Notes: generated from the letters alone by a model not told the origin. Numbered from the stretch's first letter, positions 4,187-59,714 are shown. The stretch is DNA of 64,000 nt from an uncultured Bacteroidales bacterium (GCA_963732435.1 CAVSZL010000006.1:402579-466578), one strand, 5' to 3'. Made by a program: numbers and translations.

Positions 4187-5356
4187 ATGAAAATTATCAG
4201 GGTTAATGACAGAAAAACACAGAAAAAATTTCTTGATACTGCAAGAATTGTTTACAAAGATGATGATGTATGGGTATGTCCTTTTGATAATGAAATCAAC
4301 GCAATATTCGACCCTTCAAAAAATCCATACTATAAACATGGTGAAGCTGAACGATGGATACTGGAAGATGGTAAAAATAACCTGATCGGAAGAATAGCTG
4401 CTTTAATTGACAGAAACCTTTCACATTCATACGAACAGCCTACTGGAGGCATCGGATTCTTTGAGTGTATTAATGATAAAGCTGCTGCATATCTTCTCTT
4501 TGATACTGCCAGAGAGTGGCTGACATCAAGAGGGATGGAGGCTATGGACGGGCCAATTAATTTCGGAGAGACAGATAAATACTGGGGCTTGCTGGTTGGT
4601 GGTTTTACACATCCGTCATTTGAGGTTCCATATAATCCGCCTTATTATAAGGACCTCTTCGAATCGTACGGGTTTAAGACTTACTATAAAATGGAAGGAT
4701 TTCATCTTGATATAACAAAACCGCTCTCAGAGAGATTCCGGAAAATAGCAGAGTGGGTTGCCAGGAAGCCAGGATATGAATTCCGGCATTTCAGTTGGGA
4801 AGATCAGGAAAAGTTCACCACCGATTTTGCTGCAGTGTTTAACGAGGCATGGGTCTCTTTTAAGGTCCATTTTGAACCGCTGAAAGCTGAATATATAAAC
4901 ACTGTACTTAAAAAAGCTAAAGCAATAATTGATGAAGAGTTTATATGGATAGCTTATTTTGAAGGGAAACCGATTGCAATTTACCTTATGTTTCCTGATC
5001 TCAATCAAATACTTAAAAAGTTGAATGGTAAGCTGAACATATTCAGTATGATTAAGTTCCTATATCTGAAAAAACAGAATACCATGACCAGAGCCAAAGG
5101 GTTATTAATGGGTGTTATTCCAAAATATCAGGGAATGGGAATAGAATCAGCTTTTATTTTAAACATACAGGAAGTATTAAAAAAGAAACCTCACTATCAG
5201 GAGATTGAATTCTCCTGGGTGGCTGACTTTAATCCAAGAATGAGAAAAATATTTATATCGGTCGGTAGTGTACCCGTAAAAAACTATATAACTTACAGGT
5301 ATCTTTTTGACAGGACAAAGAAGTTTAAAAGATACCCAATTCCGGAAATTAAATAA
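4187..5356 (+). CDS. Conserved Bacteroidota GNAT-like (acyl-CoA N-acyltransferase fold) protein of unknown function; paralog of 50068..51291
   Basis: 389 aa. Shares long blocks with the second copy (RHGEAxRWIL, QPTGGxGFFE, RGMEAxDGPINFGE, FPDLNQIL, ITYRYL). The fold assignment is from recollection of how this family is annotated, not from a search. Confidence 0.5.
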   Translation: MKIIRVNDRKTQKKFLDTARIVYKDDDVWVCPFDNEINAIFDPSKNPYYKHGEAERWILEDGKNNLIGRIAALIDRNLSHSYEQPTGGIGFFECINDKAAAYLLFDTAREWLTSRGMEAMDGPINFGETDKYWGLLVGGFTHPSFEVPYNPPYYKDLFESYGFKTYYKMEGFHLDITKPLSERFRKIAEWVARKPGYEFRHFSWEDQEKFTTDFAAVFNEAWVSFKVHFEPLKAEYINTVLKKAKAIIDEEFIWIAYFEGKPIAIYLMFPDLNQILKKLNGKLNIFSMIKFLYLKKQNTMTRAKGLLMGVIPKYQGMGIESAFILNIQEVLKKKPHYQEIEFSWVADFNPRMRKIFISVGSVPVKNYITYRYLFDRTKKFKRYPIPEIK

Positions 5357-8880: not shown

Positions 8881-10827
8881 TTATTGCATTCGTTTTATTC
8901 TCACCCCCTCCGGCTGACTAATAATAATAGGAACCTGTTCTTCAACAGTATTACAACTGTCTAACTGTAAAGCCTTAATATCAGATATGCAGAAAAGCCT
9001 TGAAATACTATGAAGTGAAAGAGTTAGATTTTCGATACTTGAAAGCTTATAATCCTGAGGCATCACCCTGTCAATAAGCACATATTTAAAATCAGCCGGC
9101 ATAGAATGTTTTCTTAAGGAGGGATAATTACTATCAATTGAAATTTGCTCCGTTTCAATAAGATCAGCTAAAATCTCCCTGAAGTAAAGGTTGATTTTGG
9201 GTTCCACTTTAAATCCCAGGTGAAAATCGACCCTTATTAATACTCTTGGAATTATTTCTGTTACCTGGTATTCAAATCTGTATGGTTCATCCACGCCGTT
9301 AACATGCAGTAGCCAGTAAGTATCTGCCCTCTTGGGTTGTTTCTGAAATATAGAAAATATCACTTTTGACTCTACCTGATCCTGCCTGTTGGCTTTAATT
9401 ATATAAACAAGATTAGTAGCTGTTTTAGGAACAGATTCATCCTGTGAGAGATCTTTAAACATTTCAGAATACTTCCTAAGATCAGTAAAGGTTACATATC
9501 TGTTCTTCAATTTTCTGCCAAAAAACCATCCATACATTATAATTATAAACAGAGAAGCCAAAAGAAGTGTAACCCATCCACCGTCATTAAATTTATGGAG
9601 GTTAGCTACCAGGAAACTTCCTTCAATCACCAGAAATGTAATAAAAATCAACAATACGATTCTGTGGTTTACACGCTTCTGAAATAAATAATATGTCAGT
9701 AGGAATGTGGTCATCAACTCTGTAATTGTAATAGCCAATCCATATGCAGCAGTCATATTTTCAGAAGCTTTGAAAAAGATAACTACAAGGCTGGTTGCTA
9801 TCCAGAGATACCAGTTAACGAAAGGCAGATAAACCTGGCCACGAACCAAACTTGGATTAAGGACTCTCACTTTAGGCCAGAAATTGAGTGAAACTGCCTC
9901 TTTTATTATTGTAAATGATCCGCTTATGATAGCCTGACTGGCTATGACAGACGCGGCTAATGCTATAAGAATACCCGGTAAAAGGAACCATTTAGGCATA
10001 ATTGAATAAAAAGGATTAATGCCTGCTTCTGTTGTTCTGTTAGCCATCAGCCAGGCTCCCTGTCCAAAATAATTTATGAGAAGTGTTATCTTAACAAAGA
10101 TCCATGAAACCTGAATATTTCTTCGTCCGCAATGACCCAGATCAGCATAAAGAGCCTCAGCTCCGGTTGTGCAGAGAAATACTGCTCCCAGGAGAATGAA
10201 TGCACCGGGGTACTCACTTAAAAAACTTATTGCATAACCTGGACTGATAGCTTTTAATATTTCCGGGGAATAAATTAACTGTGATAACCCTAATAATCCC
10301 AGCATTGAAAACCAGATTACCATAATCGGACCGAAATAGCTGCCAATCGAGTGGGACCCGAATTGCTGAATAAAAAAGAGCACTGCAAGAATAAACAAAA
10401 CTATCGGTATCACAGGTATTGAAGAATTGATTAATCTTAAACCCTCAATTGAAGAAGTCACTGTGATGGCCGGAGTTATTACTCCATCGGCCAGCAAAGC
10501 TGCTGCCCCCACCATTGTCAACAAGGCTACCCAAGATGATTTCTTTCTGATTAATGCAAAAAGTGCCAGAATTCCTCCCTCGCCCTTATTATCAGCGCGA
10601 AGAGCTATAATGATATACTTTGTTGTTGTTTGCAGAGTAAGCGTCCAGAAAATACAGGATAATGATCCGAATATCAGTAGTTCATTGAATTCAGTTCCTC
10701 CCCTTAAAATAGCCTTCATAACATAAAGGGGACTTGTTCCCAGGTCACCGAAAACAATACCAAGAGTAACCAATACTCCGGCAAAAGAGAGCTTCTTAAT
10801 ATCCATTTGCCTGTCCGTTCCGTTCAT
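8881..10827 (-). CDS. kup: KUP/HAK/KT-family potassium transporter (copy 2, tandem paralog)
   Basis: 648 aa, colinear with copy 1. Motifs 'GDLGTSPLY', 'ADNKGEGGILALFALI', 'GAEALYADLGHCG'. Confidence 0.9.
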   Translation of the reverse strand: MNGTDRQMDIKKLSFAGVLVTLGIVFGDLGTSPLYVMKAILRGGTEFNELLIFGSLSCIFWTLTLQTTTKYIIIALRADNKGEGGILALFALIRKKSSWVALLTMVGAAALLADGVITPAITVTSSIEGLRLINSSIPVIPIVLFILAVLFFIQQFGSHSIGSYFGPIMVIWFSMLGLLGLSQLIYSPEILKAISPGYAISFLSEYPGAFILLGAVFLCTTGAEALYADLGHCGRRNIQVSWIFVKITLLINYFGQGAWLMANRTTEAGINPFYSIMPKWFLLPGILIALAASVIASQAIISGSFTIIKEAVSLNFWPKVRVLNPSLVRGQVYLPFVNWYLWIATSLVVIFFKASENMTAAYGLAITITELMTTFLLTYYLFQKRVNHRIVLLIFITFLVIEGSFLVANLHKFNDGGWVTLLLASLFIIIMYGWFFGRKLKNRYVTFTDLRKYSEMFKDLSQDESVPKTATNLVYIIKANRQDQVESKVIFSIFQKQPKRADTYWLLHVNGVDEPYRFEYQVTEIIPRVLIRVDFHLGFKVEPKINLYFREILADLIETEQISIDSNYPSLRKHSMPADFKYVLIDRVMPQDYKLSSIENLTLSLHSISRLFCISDIKALQLDSCNTVEEQVPIIISQPEGVRIKRMQ

Positions 10828-22270: not shown

Positions 22271-25270
22271 CTAAAACCTGAAATATATAAATGGCTGTAT
22301 ATCTGTTGTCCTCATCTGGTAAAGCAGAACAGCCACTACCATTAAAACAATCATCTGACCCACCAGTGGTATTCTGATAAAATATCCCCTGTAGACTTCT
22401 TTGGTTACCTCGGGAAGAAGATGGATCATATACCCTGCAATTATCAATAAGAATACATTTCCATATACTGGCAATACTGTACTGTATGATCCGGGCGAAA
22501 AATTTTCTATAATCTGGGTAATCATGATTCTGACACTATCCACATCCGGTGCCCTGAAAAAAATCCAGCAGAAGGTCACAAAATGGAATGTAATAAAAAC
22601 TCCTAAGATCCGGCTTATGCGATTTGAAAAAAGTTTTACGCCAATAACTGATCGCCAGGTACGACTAATAACCAGGGCTATACCATGAAACGCACCCCAA
22701 ATTATAAACCTGAGAGAAGCTCCATGCCAAAGACCACCCAGCAACATGGTGATTATAAGATTGATATAGGCTCTGATCTTCCCTTTTCTGTTTCCGCCTA
22801 ATGGTATATACAGATAATCCTTTAACCAGCGTGAAAGGGAAATATGCCATCGCTTCCAGAAATCTTCAATGCTGGATGCCTTATAGGGTGAATTAAAGTT
22901 AACCGGTAAGCGGAATCCAAGTATCAATGCTATCCCGATAGCAATATCAGTGTAACCTGAAAAATCACAATAGATCTGAAGACCATATCCATAAACCGCC
23001 ATCAGGTTTTCAAAACCTGAATAGAAGGCAGGAGTATCGAAGACCCTGTCAATAAAATTAACAGCAATAAAATCAGATATTATGATTTTTTTAATCAACC
23101 CTTTGGATATTAAAAATAATGCATGACTAAACTCTCTCTTCCCAAGGTGAAATTCGCTATATAGCTGGGGAATGAATTCAGAAGCTCTTACGATTGGGCC
23201 GGCAACCAGTTGGGGAAAAAAGGAAACATAAAATCCGAAATCCAGGATATTCCTTACCGGCTCCATTTTCCTCCTGTAAACATCTATTGTATAGCTTAAA
23301 GACTGAAATGTAAAAAATGATATTCCGACAGGGAGGATAATAGTACTTATTCCAAACGAAGTCCCGAGAACAGAATTTGAAAATTGTGCAAAATAATCGT
23401 ACACAATAAAATCTGTTCCCAGCAGATTATTTAAAGATTCCACAATGAAAGCCGAATATTTAAAATAAGCAAGTATTCCCAGGTTTGAGAATAGACTAAA
23501 AACAATCATAATTCTTCTGAAAAACCTGGACTTTGAATTATAGATCAGTAAACCGCATGTATAATCAATTACCGAGACTAAAATCAGAAGAAATAAGAAA
23601 AGGCCCCCGGATTTATAATAAAAAAAGAGGCTGAAAATGAAGAGATAAACATTTCGCAGATATAGCTTCCTGTATACTAGGCTATATCCTGCAAGAACGA
23701 TCAGGAAGAATATCCAGAAAGCAGGTACTGAAAAGATCAATGGCTTTAATGGATCATAGCTGAATATTAATGAGATAAGTATCCTGAGGAAGCTCTCATT
23801 TTCCGGAGTTTCAACAGGACTGATTGAATTATCCTGCTGTTTAAGGATAACACTATCCTGTCTGTAACTGACCATTGTCAAACAAACAGAGTCTGATTCT
23901 TCATAATTAAACAAAGCATCTGTAAGTATCCTTGAAAGAGTATCAGCCCCCTGATTGGTAAAATGGACATAATCTTTCTGTGCTAAAGGAGGTAACTTTC
24001 CCGCCCATTTTATGATCGACGACTCTCCTCCCATTGCATTATACGAATCCCAGAATATTGCACCAGCCTCATCCGATGCACTCTTCTGTGCCTCAATTAT
24101 TGAGGAGATATTGCTGTACGAGACTATACTGTCACCATTAGTATAAGCCATATCCGTAACACCAACCAGCAGAACAGGTGTAGATGGGGAGATCTCCTTC
24201 AACAATGAAAGTTGCCGTACCAGTCCTTTTCTGTAGTAAGAATAATCGGACCGGACATTCCTGACAATGTTTAGACCGTAATGCAGCACGAACAAGTCAG
24301 GAGAGAGTCTCCTGTAAGATTCAGCAAGATTCTCCCTGTCAACCATTGTAAACTCAAGACCTGCACTTCCTCGTTGCGGGATATTGTCAACTATAACACC
24401 TTTGCTGCTTTCAATACTGATCCCAAAAATATCCGGACTAACTCTTCCTTCAAACTCAATCAGAATCTGTTTTGCCCCCATTAACTTACAGGAAATCTCA
24501 TTTATTCCCTCGCCCCTCCTCAGAGTATCTGCAAATAACTTTTTTTCATCACCTCTGACTTCTACTTTAACAACACCCTCCCTGTTTTCATAAAAAATTC
24601 TCAGCAAATCATATTCTGATGAAGTGCTGTCAGCAAATTTAGAGGGCCTGATATTTACAGAAGCCTTAACAGGTGCAGGGGAGTTTTCTCCTTCTGGCAA
24701 ATATCTGCACAAGGTCATAAACGGACCAAAATCCCTGTGTGATATTTCGCCGCCAGTGTATGAAAGATAATTATATCTTTTCCAGTTTGAGGAAGACCTT
24801 ATCCATATCGACTTTGTATACATCACAGGCATAAGCGGGAGGAAAAGTCCTGGTCCGGTTCCTCCCCCCTGTTTTCTGAGAGTCGAACGTAAAAATGAAG
24901 TTACACGATCGCCTTCTATCTGAGAATCACCATAATACAGAATCCGGATTTGTTTATCCGAGTGTTGCATGGAATCAACCAGAACCCTCAGTGCATTATC
25001 AGTAACACTATCAGTAATAGTGTCTTTAACGACAGGGACAGAATCTGGTCTGATAAAAATCTTTTCAGGTAATGCAGCAATTGAATCAGCCGGATGAAAA
25101 TCATTTATCTCTTTAATATCATCGTTTAAGGGAAATAGCGCATTTATCAGACTTGAAGGGAAAAAGTCATTAATACTGGGAAAAAGTTGAGGAGCCGGAA
25201 AAATATAATGAAGACCTGTTAAACAGACCAGTAAGATCAGTAGCAGCCAAAACGACCTTAGGGGACGCAT
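22271..25270 (-). CDS. Fusion protein: N-terminal anchored SGNH/GDSL-like domain plus a C-terminal MBOAT membrane O-acyltransferase (AlgI/PatA/DltB-like)
   Basis: SGNH blocks 'LYYGDSQIEGD' and 'DYVHFT'. MBOAT motifs 'FWKRWHISLSRWLKDYLYIPLGGNRKG' and 'GGLWHGAS'. 999 aa with many TM segments in the C-terminal half. Confidence 0.75.
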   Translation of the reverse strand: MRPLRSFWLLLILLVCLTGLHYIFPAPQLFPSINDFFPSSLINALFPLNDDIKEINDFHPADSIAALPEKIFIRPDSVPVVKDTITDSVTDNALRVLVDSMQHSDKQIRILYYGDSQIEGDRVTSFLRSTLRKQGGGTGPGLFLPLMPVMYTKSIWIRSSSNWKRYNYLSYTGGEISHRDFGPFMTLCRYLPEGENSPAPVKASVNIRPSKFADSTSSEYDLLRIFYENREGVVKVEVRGDEKKLFADTLRRGEGINEISCKLMGAKQILIEFEGRVSPDIFGISIESSKGVIVDNIPQRGSAGLEFTMVDRENLAESYRRLSPDLFVLHYGLNIVRNVRSDYSYYRKGLVRQLSLLKEISPSTPVLLVGVTDMAYTNGDSIVSYSNISSIIEAQKSASDEAGAIFWDSYNAMGGESSIIKWAGKLPPLAQKDYVHFTNQGADTLSRILTDALFNYEESDSVCLTMVSYRQDSVILKQQDNSISPVETPENESFLRILISLIFSYDPLKPLIFSVPAFWIFFLIVLAGYSLVYRKLYLRNVYLFIFSLFFYYKSGGLFLFLLILVSVIDYTCGLLIYNSKSRFFRRIMIVFSLFSNLGILAYFKYSAFIVESLNNLLGTDFIVYDYFAQFSNSVLGTSFGISTIILPVGISFFTFQSLSYTIDVYRRKMEPVRNILDFGFYVSFFPQLVAGPIVRASEFIPQLYSEFHLGKREFSHALFLISKGLIKKIIISDFIAVNFIDRVFDTPAFYSGFENLMAVYGYGLQIYCDFSGYTDIAIGIALILGFRLPVNFNSPYKASSIEDFWKRWHISLSRWLKDYLYIPLGGNRKGKIRAYINLIITMLLGGLWHGASLRFIIWGAFHGIALVISRTWRSVIGVKLFSNRISRILGVFITFHFVTFCWIFFRAPDVDSVRIMITQIIENFSPGSYSTVLPVYGNVFLLIIAGYMIHLLPEVTKEVYRGYFIRIPLVGQMIVLMVVAVLLYQMRTTDIQPFIYFRF

Positions 25271-25284
25271 ATATTATGAAAGAA

Positions 25285-26829
25285 TCAAATCTTTTTCTTG
25301 ATCTTCAGCTTCTGCCCAACCTGGATCCTCGATGCATCAGAAATATTATTAAGATTAAGGACCTGACTCGCAGAAACGTCATCATACATTTTTACAATAT
25401 TCCAAATATTATCACCATTACGGACTGTATAAATAATATATTCTCCATCCGATTCATCCGTGACATTATAAGCTACCGGCTGAGTATTAACGGGAACAGT
25501 TTTTCCCACCATGGCCTGTTTCTCTGCAAATGTCATCGAATTTATCTTTGAAAAGTATTCGGATCTTGAAGGATCAATATATACTGCCAGTTTCTGACCT
25601 ACGCGTATAGTATTCCTGTAAATATTATTCCAGTTTCGGAGGTCGCTTAATCCGACATTGTACCATGAAGAGATGAATCCCAGATTATCTCCGTCCTGAA
25701 CAACATAAATTAATTTTGTCTTACCTTTAATGTCTGCAGGAATATAGGAAGAACGCGAAGGATCGGCAATCTGTGTTGTTTTGTTAAGGTACAGATCTGC
25801 CTTGTGACTCCTTATTGTATCATTTAAATCGATAAAATCACCCAAATGGTTCATTGGAAGAGTAAGAACCTGAGGTTTTGCTGAACCGGGAACCAGACCG
25901 GTCCGATACTGAGGATTTAATGCATGAAGTTCACCAAGAGGGATGCCCATTACTTCCGAGATCTGTTTCAGGTGAATATCCTTATTAAACATTATCGTAT
26001 CTGTTGAAACAGGTATATTAATCGGAAGCGGATAAAGGTCATGTTCTTCACTGTATGTTACAGCATATGCAGCAGCAATATACATCGGGATATAACCTCT
26101 TGTTTCCCGTGGAAGCCTGTAATAGATCTCCCAGTAATCCTTCTTATTACCCGATCGTCTTATAGCTTTGTTGACATTCCCCGGTCCGCAATTGTAAGCA
26201 GCAATAACAAGCACCCAGTCATTATAAATGCTATAAAGATCTTTCATGTAACGAGCGGCTGCATGAGTTGCCTTTAACGGGTCCCTGCGTTCATCCACCA
26301 CAGAATTTATTGTTAGTCCGTACATTCTTCCGGTACTGTACATGAACTGCCATAAACCGGTGGCACCCATCCTGGAAACCACATCGGGATTAAGGGCTGA
26401 TTCGATAACTGCCATGTATTTAAGCTCATCAGGGAGTCCATAAGAATCAAATACATTTTCGATCATCGGGAAGTAGTAATCTTTAAGTCCCAGAACAGCT
26501 TCGAATTTTTCTCTCTGCCTGATTGTATAAACATGAATATGATTTCTGATAATAGAATTGTATGGCAGGCTTATAATCGAATTAATGCGGCTTAACCTGC
26601 TCCTGTATATTGAATCAGGATACTGAAACCTCACACTATCAGATGAAGGGCTGGCGGGAGTATTCTGTAAAGCCATTTTCACATACCATGTATTGACGAG
26701 GCTGTCAAGATCTCGGGAAATTAGTTCTGAACTGTTATCTGACCGGATTATTATGGTATCGGATACCGAAAGAGCATTTAAGTTCAGAGTAATCAGAAGC
26801 AGTGTTATAAAAAAGGCAGAAAATCTCAT
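25285..26829 (-). CDS. MltD-like lytic transglycosylase with C-terminal LysM repeats
   Basis: SLT domain 'AVIESALNPDVVSRMGATGLWQFM'. Two LysM modules ('YVVQDGDNLGFISSWYNV...', 'YTVRNGDNIWNIVKMY...'). N-terminal signal peptide. Confidence 0.85.
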   Translation of the reverse strand: MRFSAFFITLLLITLNLNALSVSDTIIIRSDNSSELISRDLDSLVNTWYVKMALQNTPASPSSDSVRFQYPDSIYRSRLSRINSIISLPYNSIIRNHIHVYTIRQREKFEAVLGLKDYYFPMIENVFDSYGLPDELKYMAVIESALNPDVVSRMGATGLWQFMYSTGRMYGLTINSVVDERRDPLKATHAAARYMKDLYSIYNDWVLVIAAYNCGPGNVNKAIRRSGNKKDYWEIYYRLPRETRGYIPMYIAAAYAVTYSEEHDLYPLPINIPVSTDTIMFNKDIHLKQISEVMGIPLGELHALNPQYRTGLVPGSAKPQVLTLPMNHLGDFIDLNDTIRSHKADLYLNKTTQIADPSRSSYIPADIKGKTKLIYVVQDGDNLGFISSWYNVGLSDLRNWNNIYRNTIRVGQKLAVYIDPSRSEYFSKINSMTFAEKQAMVGKTVPVNTQPVAYNVTDESDGEYIIYTVRNGDNIWNIVKMYDDVSASQVLNLNNISDASRIQVGQKLKIKKKI

Positions 26830-50067: not shown

Positions 50068-51291
50068 TTAATTATTGTAAGTCTTCTCTTTCTTAATGTG
50101 ATGTTTTTCAGCCATTTCATCCTTGAACCTTTTAAATTTATTGTTTTTATTTACCAGGTAACGATAGGTTATATGTGTTTTTGATTTCTTAGTCCCCAGG
50201 GCTTCATAAATTGCAATCATTTTGGGGTTATAATCACCAACCCATGAGAGTTCAAGTTCCTTATACCAGTGTTTCTTTTTGAAAACCTCATATAGATGGT
50301 AAAATATTGCAGATTCAACCCCGCTGTTCTGATGCGAAGGATGTACCCCTCCTACAATAGCCCTGAGCCTTGTCATCTTATGAGCAAGCTTAAAATAAGC
50401 AAACTGAATATAGTGCCACAGGTTCAACCGGCCGTTGAAATTCTCAAGAATCTGGTTGAGATCAGGAAATAATATAAAAAAAGAAATTGGTTTATCATTA
50501 TAATATGCGAACCAAATAAGCTCCTCATCAATTATTGGTTTTGCCTTATCAAAAGACTCTTTGAGAAATCCCTGATCAATTGGGGTGAAATCCTCCTTAA
50601 AGACTGACCAGGTCGAATTGTAAATTTCAACGATATCCTTAATATATTTCTCTTTGTTTGCAGTTTCGAAGTGCCGGAAAGAATATCCGGGACGTTTAGA
50701 GAGCCAAGCGGCAATTTTCATTATCCGTTCAGGAAACCTTATTATTGTCCGGTCGGGTCCGCGTAATTCTCTATGATATGAATACTGCTCAAAATAATTC
50801 CTGAAACCATATTGTTCAAAGAAGTTCCTGTAATATCTTTTATTGTATGGCAAACTATAGGTCGGCTTCATGAATCCGTCAACAAGTAATCCCCAGTTAT
50901 TATCATTCTCTCCAAAGTTTATCGGACCATCCACTGCCTCCATTCCCCGTTCTTTTAACCACCCTATGGCAGCATCAAAAAGCATTAATGAAGCTTCTAT
51001 ATCCTCAATAACTTCAAAAAAACCTAACCCTCCGGTAGGCTGGTTGTTTGCTGCAGATCTTACATGGTCGACAAAAGCGGCTATTCTTCCAATTGTGCTT
51101 CCTTTGCTATCTTTCAGAATCCAACGGATCGCTTCACCATGCCGGAATGTATGATTCTTTGTTTTATCAAAAACAGCTTCTATTGACGAATCAAGCGGAC
51201 AAATCCAGAACGGGTCATCTATATATAACCTCTTTGGAAAATCCAAGAATTCCTTTCTGTCTGTATCTGTCTTAACTTCAGTTAGTTGCAT
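50068..51291 (-). CDS. GNAT-like protein of unknown function, paralog of 4187..5356
   Basis: 407 aa, colinear with the first copy (shared blocks listed under that feature). Confidence 0.5.
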   Translation of the reverse strand: MQLTEVKTDTDRKEFLDFPKRLYIDDPFWICPLDSSIEAVFDKTKNHTFRHGEAIRWILKDSKGSTIGRIAAFVDHVRSAANNQPTGGLGFFEVIEDIEASLMLFDAAIGWLKERGMEAVDGPINFGENDNNWGLLVDGFMKPTYSLPYNKRYYRNFFEQYGFRNYFEQYSYHRELRGPDRTIIRFPERIMKIAAWLSKRPGYSFRHFETANKEKYIKDIVEIYNSTWSVFKEDFTPIDQGFLKESFDKAKPIIDEELIWFAYYNDKPISFFILFPDLNQILENFNGRLNLWHYIQFAYFKLAHKMTRLRAIVGGVHPSHQNSGVESAIFYHLYEVFKKKHWYKELELSWVGDYNPKMIAIYEALGTKKSKTHITYRYLVNKNNKFKRFKDEMAEKHHIKKEKTYNN

Positions 51292-51464: not shown

Positions 51465-53141
51465 CTAATTAACAGTCATATACAAGATTTCCTTTGTGCT
51501 CCATGTGCCAAGTCCCGATGTGTTTAAAGAGATAATAATCCTGAATTTTCCGCTATCGGCTGGCACTCTGAGAATCAGTTCATGTACACCACTATTTTTA
51601 TCCAGTATCTGATATACCGGCAAGCCGGAAATAGCCTCAGAGAGAAGATTTTCATCCTTGTAAACAACTGCTGATATCCTTGTGGTAAAACTTCCTGCAT
51701 CCTTGTAATATTCGAATGGCTTATCAGTCTTTAATACAACCTGCACACTTATAATTTCATTTCTGTTTACAACTCTGTTCCTGACCAAGGCAGATATATT
51801 TATATCATTCATCACGGGAAGTGAATCCAGAATTGTTACCTGATAACCGGTATGAACCGGATTATCGATCTTAATACCATCCCCCAGATAGTTATTAACA
51901 TATGCTACTTTCCTATTCCTGATTGAATCACCGGAATGCCATAAATCAAACTGGTTCCTCCTGCTGTTTAAATTAATGCTTGGAATGTATGAGTTTGTGT
52001 AAAAGGACAATAGTCCGGCCATCTGGTAACTATTCGTAATTATTGGTAAGTTATGACTCCGGGAGAGTACATCCATCGCAAACTCTTTATGTCCCTGCAA
52101 ATCTTTCATACGACTGTTCCTGATGCCAAAAACCTGACTGACTAATTCGATCCTTACAATGAGAATTAAGATGATAACCGGAATAGCCAAATAATAGAAC
52201 CATCTTACCAATTTTGAATATGAAACACTGTATTTCATGAATAATATGAGTAAAGGAATAATTATTGGTAAGGTCCAGTTAACTTCTACTCTGCCTTTCA
52301 ATGATAACAGGAGAAAGAAAGCAGTTATCCCCCATAAATTCCAGACCAGTGCCTTGTCAAATAAATTTGATACTCTAATTCCTGCGGCTATAAAAAGCAT
52401 AAAAAAAGATGTAACCGGTCCATAGTAAAGAACCTGTCCGAGTAAATACTCAGAAGTAAAAGAGAACTCATAATGAGAGGCTGATCGTTCAAACAGATGA
52501 TAAAAAACAGTAACGAAGTTGTTTTTGAACTGCCATAAAATATGAGGCATAAATATCAATAAACCAATTAATAAAGCAAGATAGAATCTGGAGGATCTAA
52601 GTAATTTAAGGTTCGATAGCAGTGTGAAGATCAGAATAAGAACACCCTGATATTTACTATAAAGCAATGTTGCCATAATAAATCCGAGAAGAATGGAGTT
52701 CAAAAGAGTCTCCTTATAAAGAAACCTTTTATAAATGAAGAAAAAGAGAGCTGTGAAAAGAAGAAGCGGACTATCAGGGAGAGCAAGGAAACCTAAAATA
52801 TTTAAACCGAAAATTGATAAAATTGCAGTCAGAAACAGGACAGTATTGAGGGTTTCAGCCATCAGGAAGGTTAGTGCAAGTGCAGCAGAAATTGCAACTA
52901 CCGGGAAAATCCTTACCCCCAGCTCATCTCTGAAAAAAAAAGATCCGCACTTTACCATCAATGCAATCATTGGCGGGTGATCAAAGTACCCGAATTCTAA
53001 CTGTCTGGAAAACAGAAAATAATATGATTCATCGGAGTAGAGCTGGGCAAAATATGCTGAAAGGATATTTACAACGAACCAGATTAAAATGACATGCCAT
53101 AGTCTGAGTCTGATAAGAATATTATTGAAAAAGCCTCTCAT
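51465..53141 (-). CDS. GT-C fold glycosyltransferase, family 39/83-like (ArnT/PMT-like), with a C-terminal periplasmic beta-rich domain (copy A)
   Basis: First-loop motif 'YSDESYYFLFSRQLEFGYFDHPPM', about 11 TM, and a C-terminal soluble domain of roughly 180 aa. Confidence 0.7.
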   Translation of the reverse strand: MRGFFNNILIRLRLWHVILIWFVVNILSAYFAQLYSDESYYFLFSRQLEFGYFDHPPMIALMVKCGSFFFRDELGVRIFPVVAISAALALTFLMAETLNTVLFLTAILSIFGLNILGFLALPDSPLLLFTALFFFIYKRFLYKETLLNSILLGFIMATLLYSKYQGVLILIFTLLSNLKLLRSSRFYLALLIGLLIFMPHILWQFKNNFVTVFYHLFERSASHYEFSFTSEYLLGQVLYYGPVTSFFMLFIAAGIRVSNLFDKALVWNLWGITAFFLLLSLKGRVEVNWTLPIIIPLLILFMKYSVSYSKLVRWFYYLAIPVIILILIVRIELVSQVFGIRNSRMKDLQGHKEFAMDVLSRSHNLPIITNSYQMAGLLSFYTNSYIPSINLNSRRNQFDLWHSGDSIRNRKVAYVNNYLGDGIKIDNPVHTGYQVTILDSLPVMNDINISALVRNRVVNRNEIISVQVVLKTDKPFEYYKDAGSFTTRISAVVYKDENLLSEAISGLPVYQILDKNSGVHELILRVPADSGKFRIIISLNTSGLGTWSTKEILYMTVN

Positions 53142-53148
53142 TACTTAC

Positions 53149-54594
53149 TCAGCGTATCGGAGCTTTCCAATGAATATACAAACCCCTCTCGCCCAAAGCA
53201 TTGAATGAATAATCAAAACGCAAAACCTTATCATAGTATGTTACAAAATCAATACCCACCCCTGCACTGTACATAAGCTCATTAACAAGTGTGTTATTAT
53301 TAATCCTGTATAATCCCTGACGGTCATTAACATATCCTGCATCAAAATAGACATTTGCATAAATTTCAAGAGGGATCTTGTTTATCTGATATGCTTTCCG
53401 GACAGGCCAGAAATTCAGGTTAACAACCTTCTTTGTCAGCAATTCATACTTAAGAAGACTTTTAAAAAGTATTGCCTCATCTCCGTTAACAGCATAATAC
53501 TCATAACCCCTGACAAAGTTTAAATAACCAAGTCCTGTTTGTGAAAAAAAGTCCTTATAGTTATTTGCGTTAGAAGCGAAATAGAAACCTGTGGCAGTAT
53601 AAAACCTTTTGGAAAGCTTCCTGTAATCGGAGTACTGGAAACGAAAATCGGCACCCTTGAATTCTTCTGGCAACAGGCTCAATCCGGTTTTTCTGATGCT
53701 GGCCAATAAAAAATATCCGGTTTTTGGATAGGCTTTTGAGTCTCTGGTATCTCTTGTAAATTCATATTCGAGACTTAAATATTTTTGACGGGTACTGTCG
53801 AGCCCAAAGAAATTGTTATTAAGGTTCACAATTGTATCTGCAATCCTGTCATCAGTATAACCAAAAGTGGCAGAATGGGAGTTAAAGAAAGCTTTCCGGT
53901 AAACGTATTTCAAAGCAAAATCAGTACTTGTCAGCAAGGTCCGGTTAGATTTTAAATTCTGAAGCTTATTGTCCTCAATTCCCCATGGAACATAACTTTG
54001 TTCAGAAAAAGCGGTTTTTAGTGAAAGCAAATGTCGCCCTGTGGGATCTAGATGGATACCTTTATATTCAATCTCATACTTGGTAAAATTTCCCAGTCTG
54101 ATATTAAGCAGCAGGGTTTCTTTCATCCCTCTGAAATTATTTACTTTTACACCAAAACCATATTCAAGTTTATTTAAATCTTTAGTACGCCACCATTCCG
54201 CAAAGTTCAGATCTGTGTGATTCAGATAAAGCGTAGGCCAGATATACCAGCGTTCAATTAATTTAACAGTAATAATAAGAATACCAGGGCTATTATTATC
54301 AATCTCAATTTCAACAAAATTAAACAAAGAAGTTTTAGTGAGGTTATTTATACTTGTCTCCTTAAGATAATCAACCTCTGACCATTTAACATACTCATTT
54401 ACTTTAAAGGCAAGTTCCCTGAATACTATCCTGCTCTTTGTTATACGGTTGCCTTCGATATTAATCATCCCTATCCTGACACTATCTTTACTAACAGGAT
54501 CCTGACTATACACTAATACATCCTGAATAGAAAATAACAGAATCAGATAAAGGATTTTCTTGATAAAACTATATATCAGTGTATGGTTCGGCAA
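53149..54594 (-). CDS. Omp85/BamA-family outer-membrane protein with a single POTRA domain
   Basis: Signal peptide ending 'VYS|QDP', POTRA 'IGMINIEGNRITKSRIVFRELAFKVNEYV', and a beta-barrel-like alternating C-terminal part. The only possible start is TTG, directly after an in-frame stop. Confidence 0.6.
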   Translation of the reverse strand: MPNHTLIYSFIKKILYLILLFSIQDVLVYSQDPVSKDSVRIGMINIEGNRITKSRIVFRELAFKVNEYVKWSEVDYLKETSINNLTKTSLFNFVEIEIDNNSPGILIITVKLIERWYIWPTLYLNHTDLNFAEWWRTKDLNKLEYGFGVKVNNFRGMKETLLLNIRLGNFTKYEIEYKGIHLDPTGRHLLSLKTAFSEQSYVPWGIEDNKLQNLKSNRTLLTSTDFALKYVYRKAFFNSHSATFGYTDDRIADTIVNLNNNFFGLDSTRQKYLSLEYEFTRDTRDSKAYPKTGYFLLASIRKTGLSLLPEEFKGADFRFQYSDYRKLSKRFYTATGFYFASNANNYKDFFSQTGLGYLNFVRGYEYYAVNGDEAILFKSLLKYELLTKKVVNLNFWPVRKAYQINKIPLEIYANVYFDAGYVNDRQGLYRINNNTLVNELMYSAGVGIDFVTYYDKVLRFDYSFNALGERGLYIHWKAPIR

Positions 54595-54622
54595 CTAAAA
54601 AATTTTTGTGAGTATTACAGTA

Positions 54623-54630
54623 CAAAGATA
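54623..54630 (-). promoter_or_regulatory. Candidate -7 box TATCTTTG, 28 nt before the Omp85-like gene start
   Basis: Exact TAnnTTTG match. The octamer is identical to the one upstream of the flippase gene. Confidence 0.4.
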
Positions 54631-54705
54631 GTTTGATTGTCTCTGATAAAAGCTATTTAAAAACGGAAATATTTTTATTATGTTATTCTGTATTAGAATT
54701 ATAAA

Positions 54706-55101
54706 TCAAACGAAAGTAAATAAAAAATTCATTATAAAATTCCAGATAGTAACAATAGCTATGGCAAATAGCTTGGAAAGATAAAAATTTAATTTCATTC
54801 TGTCTGAAAACAGGTAGATAAGAAGATTGTTCAGAGCCAGCCCCACCAATGAGATAATAATGAATGTTATATACTCCTGTGCAATCCTGTCGTTCTGGCT
54901 CTTGAAAGTCCAGAAGTGGTTCCAGATATAATTAGATGTTGCCGCAAGAATAAAACCTGTCGAATTGGCAATGTATTTATTGATTCTGATCTTTTCCTTT
55001 AAAATCCATGTAACACCGAAATCAACAATCATTCCTGAGAATCCGACTGCACAGAACTTAATAAACTTGTAAATTATTAATTCGTTAATCATTATCAACA
55101 A
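54706..55101 (-). CDS. GtrA-family membrane protein (polyprenyl-phosphate-sugar translocation family)
   Basis: 131 aa, four TM. 'KFCAVGFSGMIVDFGV' and 'YIWNHFWTF' are typical of GtrA-like proteins. Confidence 0.75.
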   Translation of the reverse strand: MLIMINELIIYKFIKFCAVGFSGMIVDFGVTWILKEKIRINKYIANSTGFILAATSNYIWNHFWTFKSQNDRIAQEYITFIIISLVGLALNNLLIYLFSDRMKLNFYLSKLFAIAIVTIWNFIMNFLFTFV

Positions 55102-56791
55102 TTTTTAATCTTACAAACTTACTGTTAAAAGTAGGACCTAAAGATGAATTTAATGAAATGCCAAATGAATAATTACCTGACGGAAGAAGTGGCACAATAA
55201 ATTTCACAGTCCGCTGAACAGAAGCTCCCCTGTATAAAATATCTATCTTTTCAGAGAGAGTTGAATTCTGTAAAACCATTTTCTCTTTACCGACAAAAAC
55301 CGGTGTTATCTCAACAGGAAAACGGGAATGGTTAAAGTCCAGATCATAATCGCTCGGATTATTTATAACAATTGATATTCCAACCGAATCTCCGGGATTC
55401 AGAATTTCATTGGGACTATCAAAAATTATTTTAATTCTGTTTGTTGTTTGCAGGGAATCGGTAACATAACCAGTTAGCTTAAATTTACCTTCCTGAAATA
55501 CTCTTGATCCTGTTGTTTCATATCCTGCAAGGAAAACCTTTTTATTCTGGTAGTTCATTTCCTTTTCCCAGATATCATATTGTGTCTGCCTTGAGTTTAA
55601 AGAACTAATTACGAAAGTCTCTTTTCCAGTGAAATAATTATAAAGAGATGGACCCTGAAAAGAACCCAGAAATACAACCGGCAGATTATCTGATTTTAAT
55701 TCAATATATTCATATCTTTCTTCTTTTCCGTTAAATCCCAATTCAGCCACAAACGGAAGGTTTGAGATTAAAAGGATACGAATAATGAACAGGATAAACA
55801 GAGAAGGAAGGATAAACTTGCTTATAAACCGTTTAATAAACTCCAAAGAACATGCTTTCCGGAATAAAAGTATTATCATAGGTATAGAGCATGCAACGGT
55901 CCAGTGAGGTTCAACATGACCTCTAATGGATGTAAGCCAGAAGAAACCCAGAAATCCGGTAATAAGGAAATATAGTGCTTTTTCGAACATATTTTCTGAC
56001 TTGTACCGGACTATGAGAAATAAAACAGCACCAAGAGTGAAAGGATTGAAGACTGCCATTTGATTTGGAATATACTCAATGACGTACCATAACCGGAAAC
56101 CCTCGGACCTGTCAATCAGATGATATTTAAGACTTGGAAAATTATTGCTTATCTGCCAGTAAATATGAGGGCTGAGCAATAACAAAGATAATATACCGGC
56201 CAGCCAGAATTTATATCGTCCCAGGAGTTTTAAGTTTGAAAGCAGAACAAACCCTATTACAAGCACCGACTGATATTTACTATATACGAGTCCAGCCATA
56301 GAAATTGAAAGCACAATTAATGCAGGGAAGCTCTCATTTACCAGGAATTTTTTATAAGCGTATAAGAATAATGCTGTAAAAAACAGAAGCGGGGCATCCG
56401 GTGTGGTAAAAAAACCATAAGCCGTAAACATAGTCAAAGAGTTGGCGATGATAAAAAATAATAGTACATGTGAGGGTTCCGGATCTTTTACATCAATAAT
56501 CTTCCATATAATAATAAGTGAGGCCAGCTGAAGAAACAGAGTCATTAAGCGTATCCCCAGATTCCCGTCGAAGAACAGTGAGCTTAACTTAACAAGAAGT
56601 GCAACCATCGGAGGATGATCGAAATAACCCCATGCCAATATCTTGCCAAACTGATAATAATAAGCCTCATCACTTAATACTTCAGTAAAGATTGACTGCA
56701 CAAAATTTACTAAAAACCACGCAGATAAAAGAGCTATGAAAAGTTTCTTATAATCACGGAAAATCGATCCTATTGAATTAAATACAACCAA
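55085..56791 (-). CDS. GT-C fold glycosyltransferase, family 39/83-like (copy B, paralog of 51465..53141)
   Basis: 'LSDEAYYYQFGKILAWGYFDHPPM'. Shares 'YSKYQxVL...LLSNLKLL', 'PHIxWQxxNNF' and 'NSRxxQxDxW' with copy A. Confidence 0.7.
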   Translation of the reverse strand: MVVFNSIGSIFRDYKKLFIALLSAWFLVNFVQSIFTEVLSDEAYYYQFGKILAWGYFDHPPMVALLVKLSSLFFDGNLGIRLMTLFLQLASLIIIWKIIDVKDPEPSHVLLFFIIANSLTMFTAYGFFTTPDAPLLFFTALFLYAYKKFLVNESFPALIVLSISMAGLVYSKYQSVLVIGFVLLSNLKLLGRYKFWLAGILSLLLLSPHIYWQISNNFPSLKYHLIDRSEGFRLWYVIEYIPNQMAVFNPFTLGAVLFLIVRYKSENMFEKALYFLITGFLGFFWLTSIRGHVEPHWTVACSIPMIILLFRKACSLEFIKRFISKFILPSLFILFIIRILLISNLPFVAELGFNGKEERYEYIELKSDNLPVVFLGSFQGPSLYNYFTGKETFVISSLNSRQTQYDIWEKEMNYQNKKVFLAGYETTGSRVFQEGKFKLTGYVTDSLQTTNRIKIIFDSPNEILNPGDSVGISIVINNPSDYDLDFNHSRFPVEITPVFVGKEKMVLQNSTLSEKIDILYRGASVQRTVKFIVPLLPSGNYSFGISLNSSLGPTFNSKFVRLKIVDND

Positions 56792-56811
56792 AGCTGATTC
56801 AGTTTAATTAG

Positions 56812-57834
56812 TTAATAGTTATTTATATTGAAACTGACCTTTAACATCTGCTCATGATAAACCTTACTCTCCATAAAATGCAATGAATAGGTAAATCTGG
56901 TACTCACAATTTTGTTCTTAATGAAGTTCACATATAAATCGGCTCTGTTGTAAGCTCCTGCCCTGTATACAGGATCTCCCCAATAGAGATCATTTCCATG
57001 ATCATTATAAAAATCCATTTGTCCATCACCGTTATAGAAACTGTTAAAAATGCCAATGAATTTATACTCTATTGTTGTTTCTATCAGTATACCATTATGG
57101 ACAACCCACCCGGTCTGATCGGCCCTCGAACGATCGAGACCAACAGCCCAACCTGCATTTACATCAAGCCTGGTTAATGCCGTTTTACCGGAAAGATCAA
57201 TCCCTAATGATGTGAGAAGCAATCCATTATCATGGTATGGTTCATCTACTGTTGGGTCCGAGTATCCTGCAAAATGGTACATATATGCAAAGTGCTGAAA
57301 ATACAGAATCCCGGGATTGTATCTACCAGATAATCCCATGAAAAATGTTTCGCGGGTGGTTGTTGACATCCTCCCGGTCCAGTCAAGCCACAAATTAATA
57401 TAATCCTTGTCTTTGCGAAACTCCCAGAATACTCCATTTATATTTGGTCTGTAATATGATATTGAATCCTGGAAAAATAATCGCGGGTAATTATCAATTG
57501 TTGTCTTTCGGGGGAAAGCACCCATAAGGAATCTGAAAGGTTTCCTGTCGTAGCTGTAATAAGCTGTAGGGTAGAAAAAATCTATTACTTCGGAACTTCC
57601 AAACTCATAAAGCAAATCAAATCCGACATTCACACTGTGTGTCGATTCCCACGACAAACCCACCTCAGGCAAAAAATGTACTCCTGACATAGTTTGTGGA
57701 ATTTTAACAGCTGATTGTCCGAATTCGGTGTTATCAAAAAATGAGAATAATCCTACCTGCCATCTTTTTTCCTGAGAGAAGCAATCAGTTGAAACAATAA
57801 GCGCTATAAACAACAAGCATAACGATAATCTCAT
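56812..57834 (-). CDS. Secreted protein of unknown function, probable outer-membrane beta-barrel
   Basis: Signal peptide 'MRLSLCLLFIALIVSTDCFS|QEK'. Aromatic-rich alternating pattern ending in Tyr. The internal ATG at 57834 is preferred to 57858. Confidence 0.4.
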   Translation of the reverse strand: MRLSLCLLFIALIVSTDCFSQEKRWQVGLFSFFDNTEFGQSAVKIPQTMSGVHFLPEVGLSWESTHSVNVGFDLLYEFGSSEVIDFFYPTAYYSYDRKPFRFLMGAFPRKTTIDNYPRLFFQDSISYYRPNINGVFWEFRKDKDYINLWLDWTGRMSTTTRETFFMGLSGRYNPGILYFQHFAYMYHFAGYSDPTVDEPYHDNGLLLTSLGIDLSGKTALTRLDVNAGWAVGLDRSRADQTGWVVHNGILIETTIEYKFIGIFNSFYNGDGQMDFYNDHGNDLYWGDPVYRAGAYNRADLYVNFIKNKIVSTRFTYSLHFMESKVYHEQMLKVSFNINNY

Positions 57835-58114
57835 AAGGCAGAATTCACAGACTTGCAAAATTAAAATAATAATAATGATTAGAAAGTAACCTTTCTAAAA
57901 TGTTCAATATGCGGAAATCACTATTAAGATACTAATGCCAGGAAACGGGGAAATGAATACGACATACCCGGAGAAGTTCTTTGAACAAATGTAAATGCAT
58001 GGATGCAGGAAGTTGATTTTTAAAAGAGCTGAAAGGGTATCTAAAAACTGATTAAACAGGTAATTTGCAATTCTGGGACAGAAAATCACTCTGCCAGAAG
58101 TAAGAGAATGGGTT

Positions 58115-59464
58115 TTACTGAATATTAATGATCCTGTGATCTATCAGAATAAAGAGTATTGCGATTATAAGCGAGTAGATGGCATATATCCTCAATGGGA
58201 TATAATCTGAAGGTTTAATTTTCATTCTGAACCATAAGTATCCAACCAAAAACATCTTACTGACACAATAAACAATAAAAGTTGATACAGCGACGCCAAC
58301 AATCCCATAACCCCATTTTATCATCATCAGGCTTAATGGTATATTCAACCCGAGTTCAATAAGTGCCGCGAAAAGTGTAATATGGGTTTTCTTTCTTCCA
58401 ACTATAATTGTCTGTGGAAAGACAAGTCTGGGAATTATCAGCAGTGAATAAACCAGAAAAATACCAGCGCTCTTATGGAACTCCGGATTGAACATTCTTG
58501 GATATATCCATCTGCTAATAAGCATCATAACCATCGCTGCCGGAAAAAGGAAATGCATAAGTTTTTGAGATTTTTCCTTTATCTTGGCAAGGGATTCTCT
58601 CATCCTCTCACGTGTTGAAAACTCAGGTAGCATTGCATTGTTCAGTCCGTTTGCAAGCATCAGGACAAGAGGAAATTCCTTGGCCCCGTAACGAAACCAT
58701 GCAAAAATTGCAGGGTCCTTGTAAACTGATGATATAATAACACCATCAGCATATTGAGCTGATCCGCTTATGAGGGAAGTTATGATGAGAGGGGCACCCA
58801 GATAAAGATGTTCCTTCATGAACTCAACTGATATCTTCATTTCGGTATACCTTCTGAGCAATATAATAAGCCAGATCCATCTGATCCCGGTAATACCCAG
58901 TAAACCCCAGATAGACCAGATAATATCCTTTCCCATCAAAATAGGTATAATAATAAGAAGGAGCTGTGCAGTGAAGGTATAAAGCCCATACTGAAAGATC
59001 CTGTAAGACCTGTTGTTCAGCAGATAAATATATTCGATAAGGCATACCGGACTGCTTAGCAGGATATACAGTAGAAGAAGATTCAGGTATGGTACATTAC
59101 CCGTAATATTAAATACCGAAAAATTATCTTTCAGAGAATGCCCTATTATAAAAAAAAGCAGGCTGAAAAAACACAATAACAGGAAGGCATTAAATATCTC
59201 CGGCGTTTTAGCTGGGGCACTTTCTCCAACTTTATTATAAGTTTTGTTCCTGTGGTAAAGAGGAAGAAGAGACTGAACAATTCCTGTTACCCAGAAAAAG
59301 GTCATCACGCTTGCAATAAACATAAACATCTCCCACTGCCCTATTTCGGCACGTGTAAGATGGCTTTTCGTAAAAACGATGCTGACAATCAGAAAGATCA
59401 CGGGCTTCATCAACTGGAAAAGCTGTAGCCCTGAAATATTATCGATTAATTTTATTCTTTTCAA
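58115..59464 (-). CDS. MOP-superfamily (Wzx-like) oligosaccharide/polysaccharide flippase
   Basis: 449 aa, about 12-14 TM, with the general architecture of polysaccharide biosynthesis flippases. Confidence 0.6.
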   Translation of the reverse strand: MKRIKLIDNISGLQLFQLMKPVIFLIVSIVFTKSHLTRAEIGQWEMFMFIASVMTFFWVTGIVQSLLPLYHRNKTYNKVGESAPAKTPEIFNAFLLLCFFSLLFFIIGHSLKDNFSVFNITGNVPYLNLLLLYILLSSPVCLIEYIYLLNNRSYRIFQYGLYTFTAQLLLIIIPILMGKDIIWSIWGLLGITGIRWIWLIILLRRYTEMKISVEFMKEHLYLGAPLIITSLISGSAQYADGVIISSVYKDPAIFAWFRYGAKEFPLVLMLANGLNNAMLPEFSTRERMRESLAKIKEKSQKLMHFLFPAAMVMMLISRWIYPRMFNPEFHKSAGIFLVYSLLIIPRLVFPQTIIVGRKKTHITLFAALIELGLNIPLSLMMIKWGYGIVGVAVSTFIVYCVSKMFLVGYLWFRMKIKPSDYIPLRIYAIYSLIIAILFILIDHRIINIQ

Positions 59465-59637: not shown

Positions 59638-59712
59638 GGTGGATGTAGTTCAGTCGGTTAGAACGTCGGATTGTGGTTCCGAAGGTCGTGGGTTCGAGCC
59701 CCATCTTCCACC
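59638..59712 (+). tRNA. tRNA-His (anticodon GTG) with genome-encoded G-1
   Basis: Hand-folded cloverleaf. G-1 is opposite discriminator C73. D stem GTTC/GAAC. Anticodon stem TCGGA/TCCGA with loop TTGTGGT. T arm GTGGG-TTCGAGC-CCCAT. One U-U mismatch at 6:67. No encoded CCA. Confidence 0.9.
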
Positions 59713-59714
59713 CG

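Follow-up and report, generated by a model that had tools for sequence, protein, structure and literature searches.

Predicted polyprenyl-phosphate-sugar glycosylation genes linked to an Omp85 protein and a PF28590 barrel in uncultured Bacteroidales

Background

Can a cluster of envelope genes that combines two putative periplasmic glycosyltransferases with two outer-membrane beta-barrel proteins work as a glycosylation system when the enzyme expected to make its sugar donor is missing, and what would such a system modify? The question is raised by six co-directional minus-strand open reading frames (ORFs) that encode, in order, a flippase, a barrel, the glycosyltransferase GT-C B, the small membrane protein GtrA, an Omp85 protein and the glycosyltransferase GT-C A, all found where a preliminary description generated from the sequence had placed them within a stretch of 64,000 nucleotides (the window) from an uncultured Bacteroidales bacterium (GCA_963732435.1, CAVSZL010000006.1:402579-466578; Table 1). 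In related loci the missing enzyme is encoded beside the barrel gene, and we give about an even chance to the interpretation that the cluster is a polyprenyl-phosphate-sugar glycosylation system acting on lipopolysaccharide (LPS) or lipid A and that it is coupled to a lipid A-remodelling barrel of the outer membrane.

Results and discussion

Conservation of the cluster in relatives

Relatives of the Omp85 gene were sought in one genome per species, at least 591 genomes being found to possess one, and 83 Omp85-anchored loci were compared; a metagenome scan anchored on the GT-C genes gave 80 loci, 69 of them distant. The cluster is carried by uncultured Bacteroidales whose sequences come from soil and wetland metagenomes. 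The gene order of the window recurs exactly in an 80%-identical relative (L087), and sub-blocks of the cluster were seen again in about 25 other loci, so the order is not due to chance; the gene neighbourhood, the conservation of which the preliminary description had proposed to check, is syntenic in relatives. Three flanking contexts can be distinguished: type I, pyrC and a GT2 gene, then divergently barrel-[GT-C B]-GtrA-Omp85-[GT-C A]; type II, that of the window, ResB...flippase-[barrel-GT-C B]-[GtrA]-Omp85-GT-C A-GNAT-like-rpmE-Lon; and type III, AhpC-RecA-[GtrA]-[Omp85]-GT-C A-ThrA.

The GtrA-Omp85-GT-C trio is kept across all three contexts. A GT-C gene is present in the same block in 16 of the 17 loci of the Omp85 clade described below, GtrA is directly upstream of Omp85 in 12 of the 13 clade loci that have sequence there, and GT-C A is directly downstream of Omp85 in 13 loci. 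GT-C B is always located between the barrel gene and GtrA (in L001, L002, L005, L006 and L087 as well as the window), and it is 57% identical to L001:7913-9598. In the window GT-C A starts 7 nt past the Omp85 stop codon; where the two genes adjoin, they are separated by 7 nt or overlap by 4 nt, and in L003, L087, L093 and L098 too the junction is 7 nt or overlapping. GT-C A is kept without Omp85 in L089 and L091, and L007 possesses Omp85 without a downstream GT-C gene. A complete rRNA operon (16S, two tRNAs, 23S and 5S) directly follows Omp85 in L001 (11951-17224), at the position that GT-C A occupies in the window. L087 (11834-21536) contains many broken genes, including the GNAT-like gene, Lon and FtsH, a fragmentation that looks like long-read frameshift errors rather than real pseudogenes.

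Two paralogous GT-C glycosyltransferases

Both GT-C proteins match the Pfam family PMT_2 above its gathering cutoff (GT-C B, E 7e-15; GT-C A, E 3.3e-10). They are full-length paralogs, 33% identical over 542 residues (E 2e-79), and the alignment includes the C-terminal periplasmic beta-rich domain that had been proposed to be common to both. The first-loop acidic motif (SDES/SDEA...GYFDHPPM) and the shared C-terminal motifs (NSRxxQxDxW and ISLNxSxG) were all found in the translations, as described at the outset. Among 33 GT-C homologs, the residues D37-E38, which follow the first transmembrane helix, and GYFDHPP (G51-P57) are invariant, as are K163 and further positions of GT-C A. The AlphaFold2 (AF2) model of GT-C A (pLDDT 90, pTM 0.88) consists of a helical membrane domain to approximately residue 335 and a C-terminal domain from approximately residue 345, in which a short alpha/beta part is followed by a beta-sandwich (approximately residues 365-558). 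Foldseek returned weak, generic GT-C matches to STT3, ALG12, Pmt4, PglB and EmbB (TM-score 0.29-0.50), and Ig/macroglobulin-like sandwiches for the C-terminus.

Sequence searches against solved structures, with single sequences or with the 33-sequence profile, gave no PDB match at E values up to 10, and there was no match in NCBIfam. Orthology to ArnT (GT83), a possibility that the preliminary description had wished to see checked, is ruled out by the lack of any sequence or profile match to the solved ArnT and by the position of ArnT outside the top 50 Foldseek matches; no PMT was matched by sequence either, and the folds recovered are those of GT-C enzymes in general. The label "GT39-like" first given to both proteins was overstated: PMT_2 alone was matched, no PMT, MIR or PMT_4TMC domain was detected, and the structural match of GT-C A to Pmt4 is weak (TM-score 0.40-0.45, 12% identity), so that a true GT39 protein O-mannosyltransferase is ruled out as well. 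GT-C A and GT-C B are PMT_2 members, neither ArnT orthologs nor true GT39 enzymes, and they probably differ in the sugar transferred or in the attachment site.

GtrA and the location of the GT2 enzyme

The GtrA protein matches GtrA_DPMS_TM in Pfam (E 2.4e-28, 99 bits versus a cutoff of 26) and is presumed to be the flippase for a polyprenyl-phosphate sugar. A GT2 enzyme is absent from the cluster, as had been noted, and also from the whole 64-kb window: tblastn with the GT2 of relatives found nothing, neither phmmer with 17 GT2 queries nor a GT2 profile found one in the six-frame translation, and Pfam scans of 54 larger ORFs of the window (the six cluster genes included) detected none. A GT2 gene hidden within the window is ruled out by the first three of these searches.

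The preliminary description had noted that the canonical three-component logic needs such an enzyme; its absence does not characterise the system. A 242-aa GT2 divergently adjoins the barrel gene in seven related loci (L001, L002, L005, L006, L084, L085 and L096), and thus the logic of GT2, GtrA and GT-C is intact in those relatives. The best NCBIfam matches of this GT2, each below its equivalog cutoff, are AglJ, PpgS, Dol-P-hexose transferase and ArnC, all of which are polyprenyl-phosphate sugar synthases. The window lineage, like L087, has the barrel-GT-C B segment behind the Wzx-like flippase instead of beside the GT2; it has merely separated the GT2 from the rest, and the puzzle of the missing GT2 is resolved. 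A 447-aa amidohydrolase of the relatives was considered as a sugar deacetylase analogous to NaxD or LgmC and was ruled out, because it is a dihydroorotase (NF006688, 709 bits, above cutoff), the gene beside the relatives' GT2 being a housekeeping gene.

The PF28590 barrel

The second gene of the cluster, first described as encoding a 348-aa secreted barrel-like protein, does encode a secreted barrel, but not an anonymous one: the protein corresponds to P0121 (340 aa from the gene-caller ATG), on which Pfam family PF28590.1, "Lipid_A_deac", is precomputed, as it is on all 120 barrel homologs among the matches listed. The protein has a signal peptide, and its AF2 model (pLDDT 78.6) has 16 strands. 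The PF28590 family comprises 728 representatives at 50% identity. The residues E37, D151, W152, E162, H187, R237 and Y295 are invariant among relatives that are 26-49% identical; the invariant His, Glu and Asp point to an enzyme rather than a porin, and this residue pattern would be compatible with a hydrolase. A PagL-like or LpxR-like barrel was ruled out, since Foldseek gives 16-18-strand porins and a profile search gave nothing relevant; the alginate exporter AlgE is among the closest folds, alongside the porins. The PF28590 barrels appear to be a family of 16-strand enzymes unlike PagL or LpxR.

To our knowledge, the only lipid A deacylase of Bacteroidales outside the PagL and LpxR families is PGN_1123 (LpxZ) of Porphyromonas gingivalis, and from the name given by Pfam we infer that PF28590 is the LpxZ family. 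Deacylation of lipid A by LpxZ was shown experimentally (PMC11784228), PG1333 (the counterpart of PGN_1123 in strain W83) is among the exported proteins unique to the order Bacteroidales (PMC1887533), and the current RefSeq name for PG1333 is "lipid A deacylase" (PMC10434189). LpxZ has no reported linkage to GT-C, GtrA or Omp85 genes, in which it differs from the barrel of the window.

PF28590 barrel genes adjoin PMT_2 genes in varied orientations in distant lineages (L117, L119, L129, L141, L143, L149, L161 and L168); L168, a distant PF28590 representative, has a divergent PMT_2 neighbour. Among the distant GT-C loci, five have GtrA directly upstream of the GT-C homolog (L102, L105, L113, L122 and L126), seven have a PF28590-like barrel gene adjacent, and none has Omp85. 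The adjacency of GT-C with the barrel and with GtrA in distant lineages indicates that these links are old and recurrent.

A captured member of the Omp85 superfamily

The Omp85 protein (481 aa) aligns with the BamA model TIGR03303 over the 400 C-terminal positions of the model (E 1.9e-13) and has one weak POTRA match (E 0.028), and its family profile aligns to POTRA5 and the barrel of BamA in PDB 4k3c (E 9.5e-6); PF07244 and PF01103 are precomputed on its homologs. In the loop-6 motif VRGYEY, R362 and E365 are invariant, and G363 and Y364 occur in at least 90% of the sequences. From these alignments the protein is predicted to be a BamA-like superfamily member with one POTRA domain and a 16-strand barrel, which bears out the single POTRA domain of the preliminary description. 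That it is BamA proper is ruled out by its length and its one POTRA domain, the true BamA (median 873 aa) being a separate gene in the ancestral locus.

In most Bacteroidota the array in which relatives of this gene are found is CBS-Omp85-NAD kinase (NADK)-DUF6089-UppS-BamA-Skp-Skp, with PdxJ divergent upstream; of the 83 Omp85-anchored loci, 68 have CBS immediately upstream, and the remaining genes occur in 31-58 (36-58 for the array from CBS to Skp). Such loci (L009-L083, for example L009:3-7704) have the single-POTRA Omp85 paralog in the conserved array, in which DUF6089 is a barrel. No assigned function was found for this conserved single-POTRA BamA paralog of the Bacteroidota housekeeping array. 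Linkage to GtrA and GT-C is limited to Omp85 copies at least 53% identical to that of the window, and in a neighbour-joining tree the 17 GT-C-linked copies form one clade with a long stem. The link is confined to one monophyletic clade of Bacteroidales and is young, and the Omp85 of the window is a member, relocated or duplicated, of a housekeeping family that spans the phylum.

In two other loci (L008:6972-14830 and L057:6151-12533) Omp85 follows genes for an inositol monophosphatase, an LpxL-type lipid A acyltransferase and a 340-aa GT2, and a PF28590-like barrel gene is located just downstream of it on the opposite strand, a gene set whose logic is reminiscent of phosphatidylinositol mannosides or of the late acylation of lipid A. 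A location near lipid A genes is classical for BamA genes. The independent occurrence of lipid A neighbours in these two loci favours an outer-membrane or LPS theme for Omp85.

Proposed function

On the interpretation to which we give an even chance, a cytoplasmic DPM1/ArnC-like GT2, encoded outside the window, would load a sugar onto polyprenyl phosphate, and GtrA would flip this lipid-linked sugar across the inner membrane to the periplasmic side. There the paralogous PMT_2 GT-C enzymes would pass the sugar to an envelope acceptor, with the Asp-Glu motif of the first periplasmic loop as the putative catalytic site and the C-terminal beta-sandwich domains probably holding the acceptor. The acceptor would most likely be LPS (lipid A, core or O-chain), because the widest-travelling partner of the GT-C family is the barrel family that Pfam calls a lipid A deacylase; of the acceptors originally put forward (lipid A or LPS core, an outer-membrane glycolipid, or protein), LPS or lipid A is the one favoured by the PF28590 name on the barrel, and protein is less favoured. 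The cluster may then be an LPS/lipid A remodelling island that combines sugar addition at the inner membrane with acyl-chain editing in the outer membrane. Omp85 would be a phylum-wide outer-membrane biogenesis gene captured into the unit by one Bacteroidales clade. It could act in barrel assembly, in physical partnership with GT-C, or through mere co-regulation, and the least speculative role would be that it serves specifically to assemble the outer-membrane part, for instance the PF28590 barrel, or is co-regulated with it. It is very doubtful that the POTRA domain of Omp85 docks on the periplasmic beta-sandwich of a GT-C enzyme, to form a trans-envelope machine that glycosylates nascent outer-membrane proteins or couples LPS glycosylation to outer-membrane remodelling.

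Several observations weigh against an LPS-directed system coupled to a lipid A-remodelling barrel. No GT2 was seen for the window's own genome, of which 64 kb were searched, and the GT-C proteins are distant from ArnT in both sequence and structure. The nearest solved folds of the barrel are porins of 16-18 strands (TM-score approximately 0.5), not PagL or LpxR; PF28590 is tied to PGN_1123 by the name of the family, and the source names of the proteins all read "hypothetical protein"; and a PF28590 gene of Paludibacteraceae (L169) stands alone. Most of the distant GT-C homologs (30-41% identity) are found in an uninformative PnuC/AAA_28/MtgA context with no barrel gene, and GtrA of Cytophaga hutchinsonii is tied to protein glycosylation and to the localisation of type IX secretion (T9SS) cargo, according to work cited in PMC11858162.

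The last of these points bears on protein O-glycosylation, in which the PMT_2 enzymes would move a hexose from polyprenyl phosphate to Ser/Thr residues of periplasmic or outer-membrane proteins and Omp85 would handle glycosylated barrel clients such as the PF28590 barrel. PMT_2 is related to the protein O-mannosyltransferases, Pmt4, STT3 and PglB are among the best structural matches, Omp85 proteins act on proteins rather than lipids, the C. hutchinsonii GtrA affects T9SS cargo localisation, and the transferase and the core-glycan flippase of the general O-glycosylation system of Bacteroidota are still unidentified (PMC12871550). However, the domains diagnostic of true PMT enzymes (PMT, MIR, PMT_4TMC) are absent from GT-C A and B, the weak similarity to Pmt4 is no better than that to other GT-C classes, the recurrent partner of the GT-C family is one named for lipid A deacylation, and the Omp85 link is found in one clade whereas the O-glycosylation system is phylum-wide; we regard this explanation as rather unlikely. 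A different division of labour would make the cluster an assembly or export system for a surface glycan or a non-LPS glycolipid, with the flippase supplying an undecaprenyl-pyrophosphate-linked unit, the GT-C enzymes extending or decorating it in the periplasm, the GNAT-like protein acylating it and the barrel serving as a porin-like exporter. The flanking of the unit by the flippase and GNAT-like genes in the window, L003, L004 and L087 is in keeping with such a system, as are the porins and AlgE as closest folds of the barrel and the resemblance of the GT-C C-terminal beta-sandwiches to the carbohydrate-binding modules of EmbB, itself among the structural matches. It is nevertheless unlikely, given that these flanking genes mark a single evolutionary event in one of three contexts, that no initiating phosphoglycosyltransferase, polymerase, chain-length regulator or other glycosyltransferase was found in the window, and that the invariant His, Glu and Asp of the barrel are typical of an enzyme.

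The genes may also be juxtaposed without joint function, GT-C, GtrA and the barrel forming an ordinary LPS-decoration unit to which Omp85, the flippase and the GNAT-like gene are unrelated housekeeping neighbours fixed by drift in one clade. The Omp85 family is indeed a housekeeping one elsewhere, its GT-C-linked copies all stem from one event, and either partner is found without the other (GT-C A in L089 and L091, Omp85 in L007). Against drift stand the survival of the trio in three different flanking contexts, the presence of GT-C in the block of 16 of 17 clade loci, the Omp85/GT-C A junction of 7 nt or overlapping genes in the window, L003, L087, L093 and L098, and the independent adjacency, in L008 and L057, of the Omp85 family to lipid A or glycolipid genes, so that we consider mere juxtaposition improbable.

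Comparison with known systems

In the Arn pathway, a GT2 (ArnC) makes the polyprenyl-phosphate sugar, ArnE-ArnF flips it, and a GT-C enzyme (ArnT) transfers the sugar to lipid A or core in the periplasm; FlmF2/FlmK of Francisella, LgmA/LgmB of Bordetella and RgtE/RgtA-D of Rhizobium are analogues. The cluster resembles Arn in its small membrane flippase, its GT-C enzymes of the PMT_2 superfamily, their first-loop acidic motif and the adjacent GT2 of relatives, but its flippase is of GtrA type rather than ArnE/F, its two GT-C enzymes are paralogs with a beta-sandwich C-terminal domain, it includes outer-membrane partners (the PF28590 barrel and Omp85), and in this genome the GT2 is unlinked. 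In Gtr serotype conversion (GtrA/GtrB/Gtr-type) and the Gram-positive CsbB/GtcA/YfhO systems of teichoic-acid glycosylation, a GtrA flippase, a polyprenyl-phosphate-hexose GT2 and a GT-C enzyme decorate an existing envelope polymer (PMC5836110; PMC12698845). The GtrA flippase and GT-C of the cluster, together with the GT2 of relatives, are like these components; the GT-C enzymes belong to another family, the locus is chromosomal rather than phage-borne, and outer-membrane partners are present. The relatives' GT2 is short (242 aa) and DPM1-like, unlike the GtrB-type enzymes, which are longer and have C-terminal transmembrane helices.

Among the outer-membrane partners, the barrel is like LpxZ in that the Pfam family it carries is named Lipid_A_deac, a likeness of name. 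The Omp85 protein is predicted to share with BamA the loop-6 VRGY motif, a POTRA domain equivalent to POTRA5 and a 16-strand barrel; it differs in having one POTRA domain versus five and in the position of its gene between GtrA and GT-C, with near-zero spacing to the latter. A BamA-like subfamily of Omp85 with 1-3 POTRA domains has been described (PMC4104836). Literature searches brought up no account of a GT-C/GtrA unit combined with Omp85 or with a PF28590 barrel, consistent with the earlier statement that the pairing of GT-C with Omp85 and a second barrel is not a described module, and no periplasmic lipid A or LPS glycosyltransferase of Bacteroidota was found in them either. In its core mechanism the system is of a known kind; what sets it apart is its outer-membrane partners, and the Omp85 pairing is tight, conserved and undescribed.

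Cluster boundaries, accessory genes and other features of the window

GtrA and GT-C B overlap by 17 nt if the TTG start is used and by 8 nt from the called ATG. The sole convincing intrinsic terminator on the minus strand (49678-49654) follows rpmE. The upstream boundary of the cluster is a tRNA-His (GTG) gene on the other strand (59639-59713, plus strand), which lies 175 nt upstream from where the flippase gene starts and is a possible rearrangement point. Promoter scans gave sigma-70 matches at the level of shuffled sequence and the Bacteroidetes -33/-7 pattern at chance frequency.

The flippase belongs to Polysacc_synt_3 (Wzx/MOP; E 8e-9, 35.6 bits versus a cutoff of 23), so that its family and its position are as originally described; its membership of the cluster is doubtful. 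It adjoins the cluster in the ResB...L31/Lon context alone (the window, L003, L004 and L087) and is absent from the other two contexts. The protein encoded after GT-C A has a weak GNAT match (Acetyltransf_1, E 1.7e-4), with no informative match in the PDB (single sequence or profile) or NCBIfam; its gene follows GT-C A in L003, L004, L090 and L093, and as fragments in L087. Since the flippase and GNAT-like genes are found in one of three contexts, through one evolutionary event, they are weak evidence for membership. The GNAT-like protein has a paralog in the window (4187-5356, plus strand), both being approximately 400 aa long; compared with the L003 homolog, the copy next to the cluster is 68% identical and the other 47%. 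The GNAT match is confined to the former, and NCBIfam and the PDB gave no match for either. The second copy has an AMP-binding (acyl-adenylate) enzyme (2382-4154) on one side and an amine-oxidase-like flavoprotein (5371-6813) on the other, neighbours that hint at an acyl-amine or lipid pathway.

The distant GT-C homologs (L099-L167; compare L086:6733-10381) are usually flanked by a PnuC-type nicotinamide mononucleotide transporter and an AAA_28 kinase-like protein, with a monofunctional peptidoglycan transglycosylase on the opposite strand. Upstream sequence by which to judge is available for 45 of the 69 distant loci, and the conserved upstream gene was seen in 36 loci; these members appear to be a separate, widely conserved orthologous group.

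Elsewhere in the window, a 999-aa protein in which an SGNH/GDSL-like domain is fused to an MBOAT O-acyltransferase (22271-25270, minus strand) adjoins an SLT lytic transglycosylase with LysM repeats (25285-26829, minus strand), a candidate unit for O-acetylation of peptidoglycan or polysaccharide. There are also two full-length Kup-type potassium transporters in tandem (6856-8817 and 8881-10827, both minus strand).

Table 1. Genes of the cluster and one neighbouring gene, with positions in the 64,000-nucleotide window
Feature	Position	Strand	Length	Family match
Wzx-like MOP-family flippase	58115..59464	-	449 aa from TTG, 431 aa as called	Polysacc_synt_3
Secreted outer-membrane beta-barrel	56812..57858	-	348 aa; likely start 57834, giving 340 aa	PF28590
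GT-C B	55085..56791	-	568 aa	PMT_2
GtrA-family small membrane protein	54706..55101	-	131 aa	GtrA_DPMS_TM
Predicted BamA-like Omp85, one POTRA	53149..54594	-	481 aa	TIGR03303 (partial), POTRA
GT-C A	51465..53141	-	558 aa	PMT_2
GNAT-like protein, possible accessory gene, one context only	50068..51291	-	407 aa	Acetyltransf_1

Conclusions

Modification of LPS and lipid A governs antimicrobial-peptide resistance and host sensing in Bacteroidota. A widespread, uncharacterised family of PMT_2 GT-C enzymes, with a beta-sandwich domain that putatively holds the acceptor, is linked to the barrel family named by Pfam for deacylation of lipid A, and a single clade has joined a BamA-like Omp85 paralog tightly to the glycosylation unit. 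The uncultured state of the carriers limits direct testing; for the broader pair of GT-C and PF28590, tests in cultured Bacteroidota should be feasible. A functional Omp85 link would widen the range of roles known for Omp85 proteins; and a machine made of Omp85 and GT-C, if it is real, would provide the first case of an Omp85 devoted to glycosylation and could bear on the undiscovered O-glycosylation transferase of Bacteroidota.

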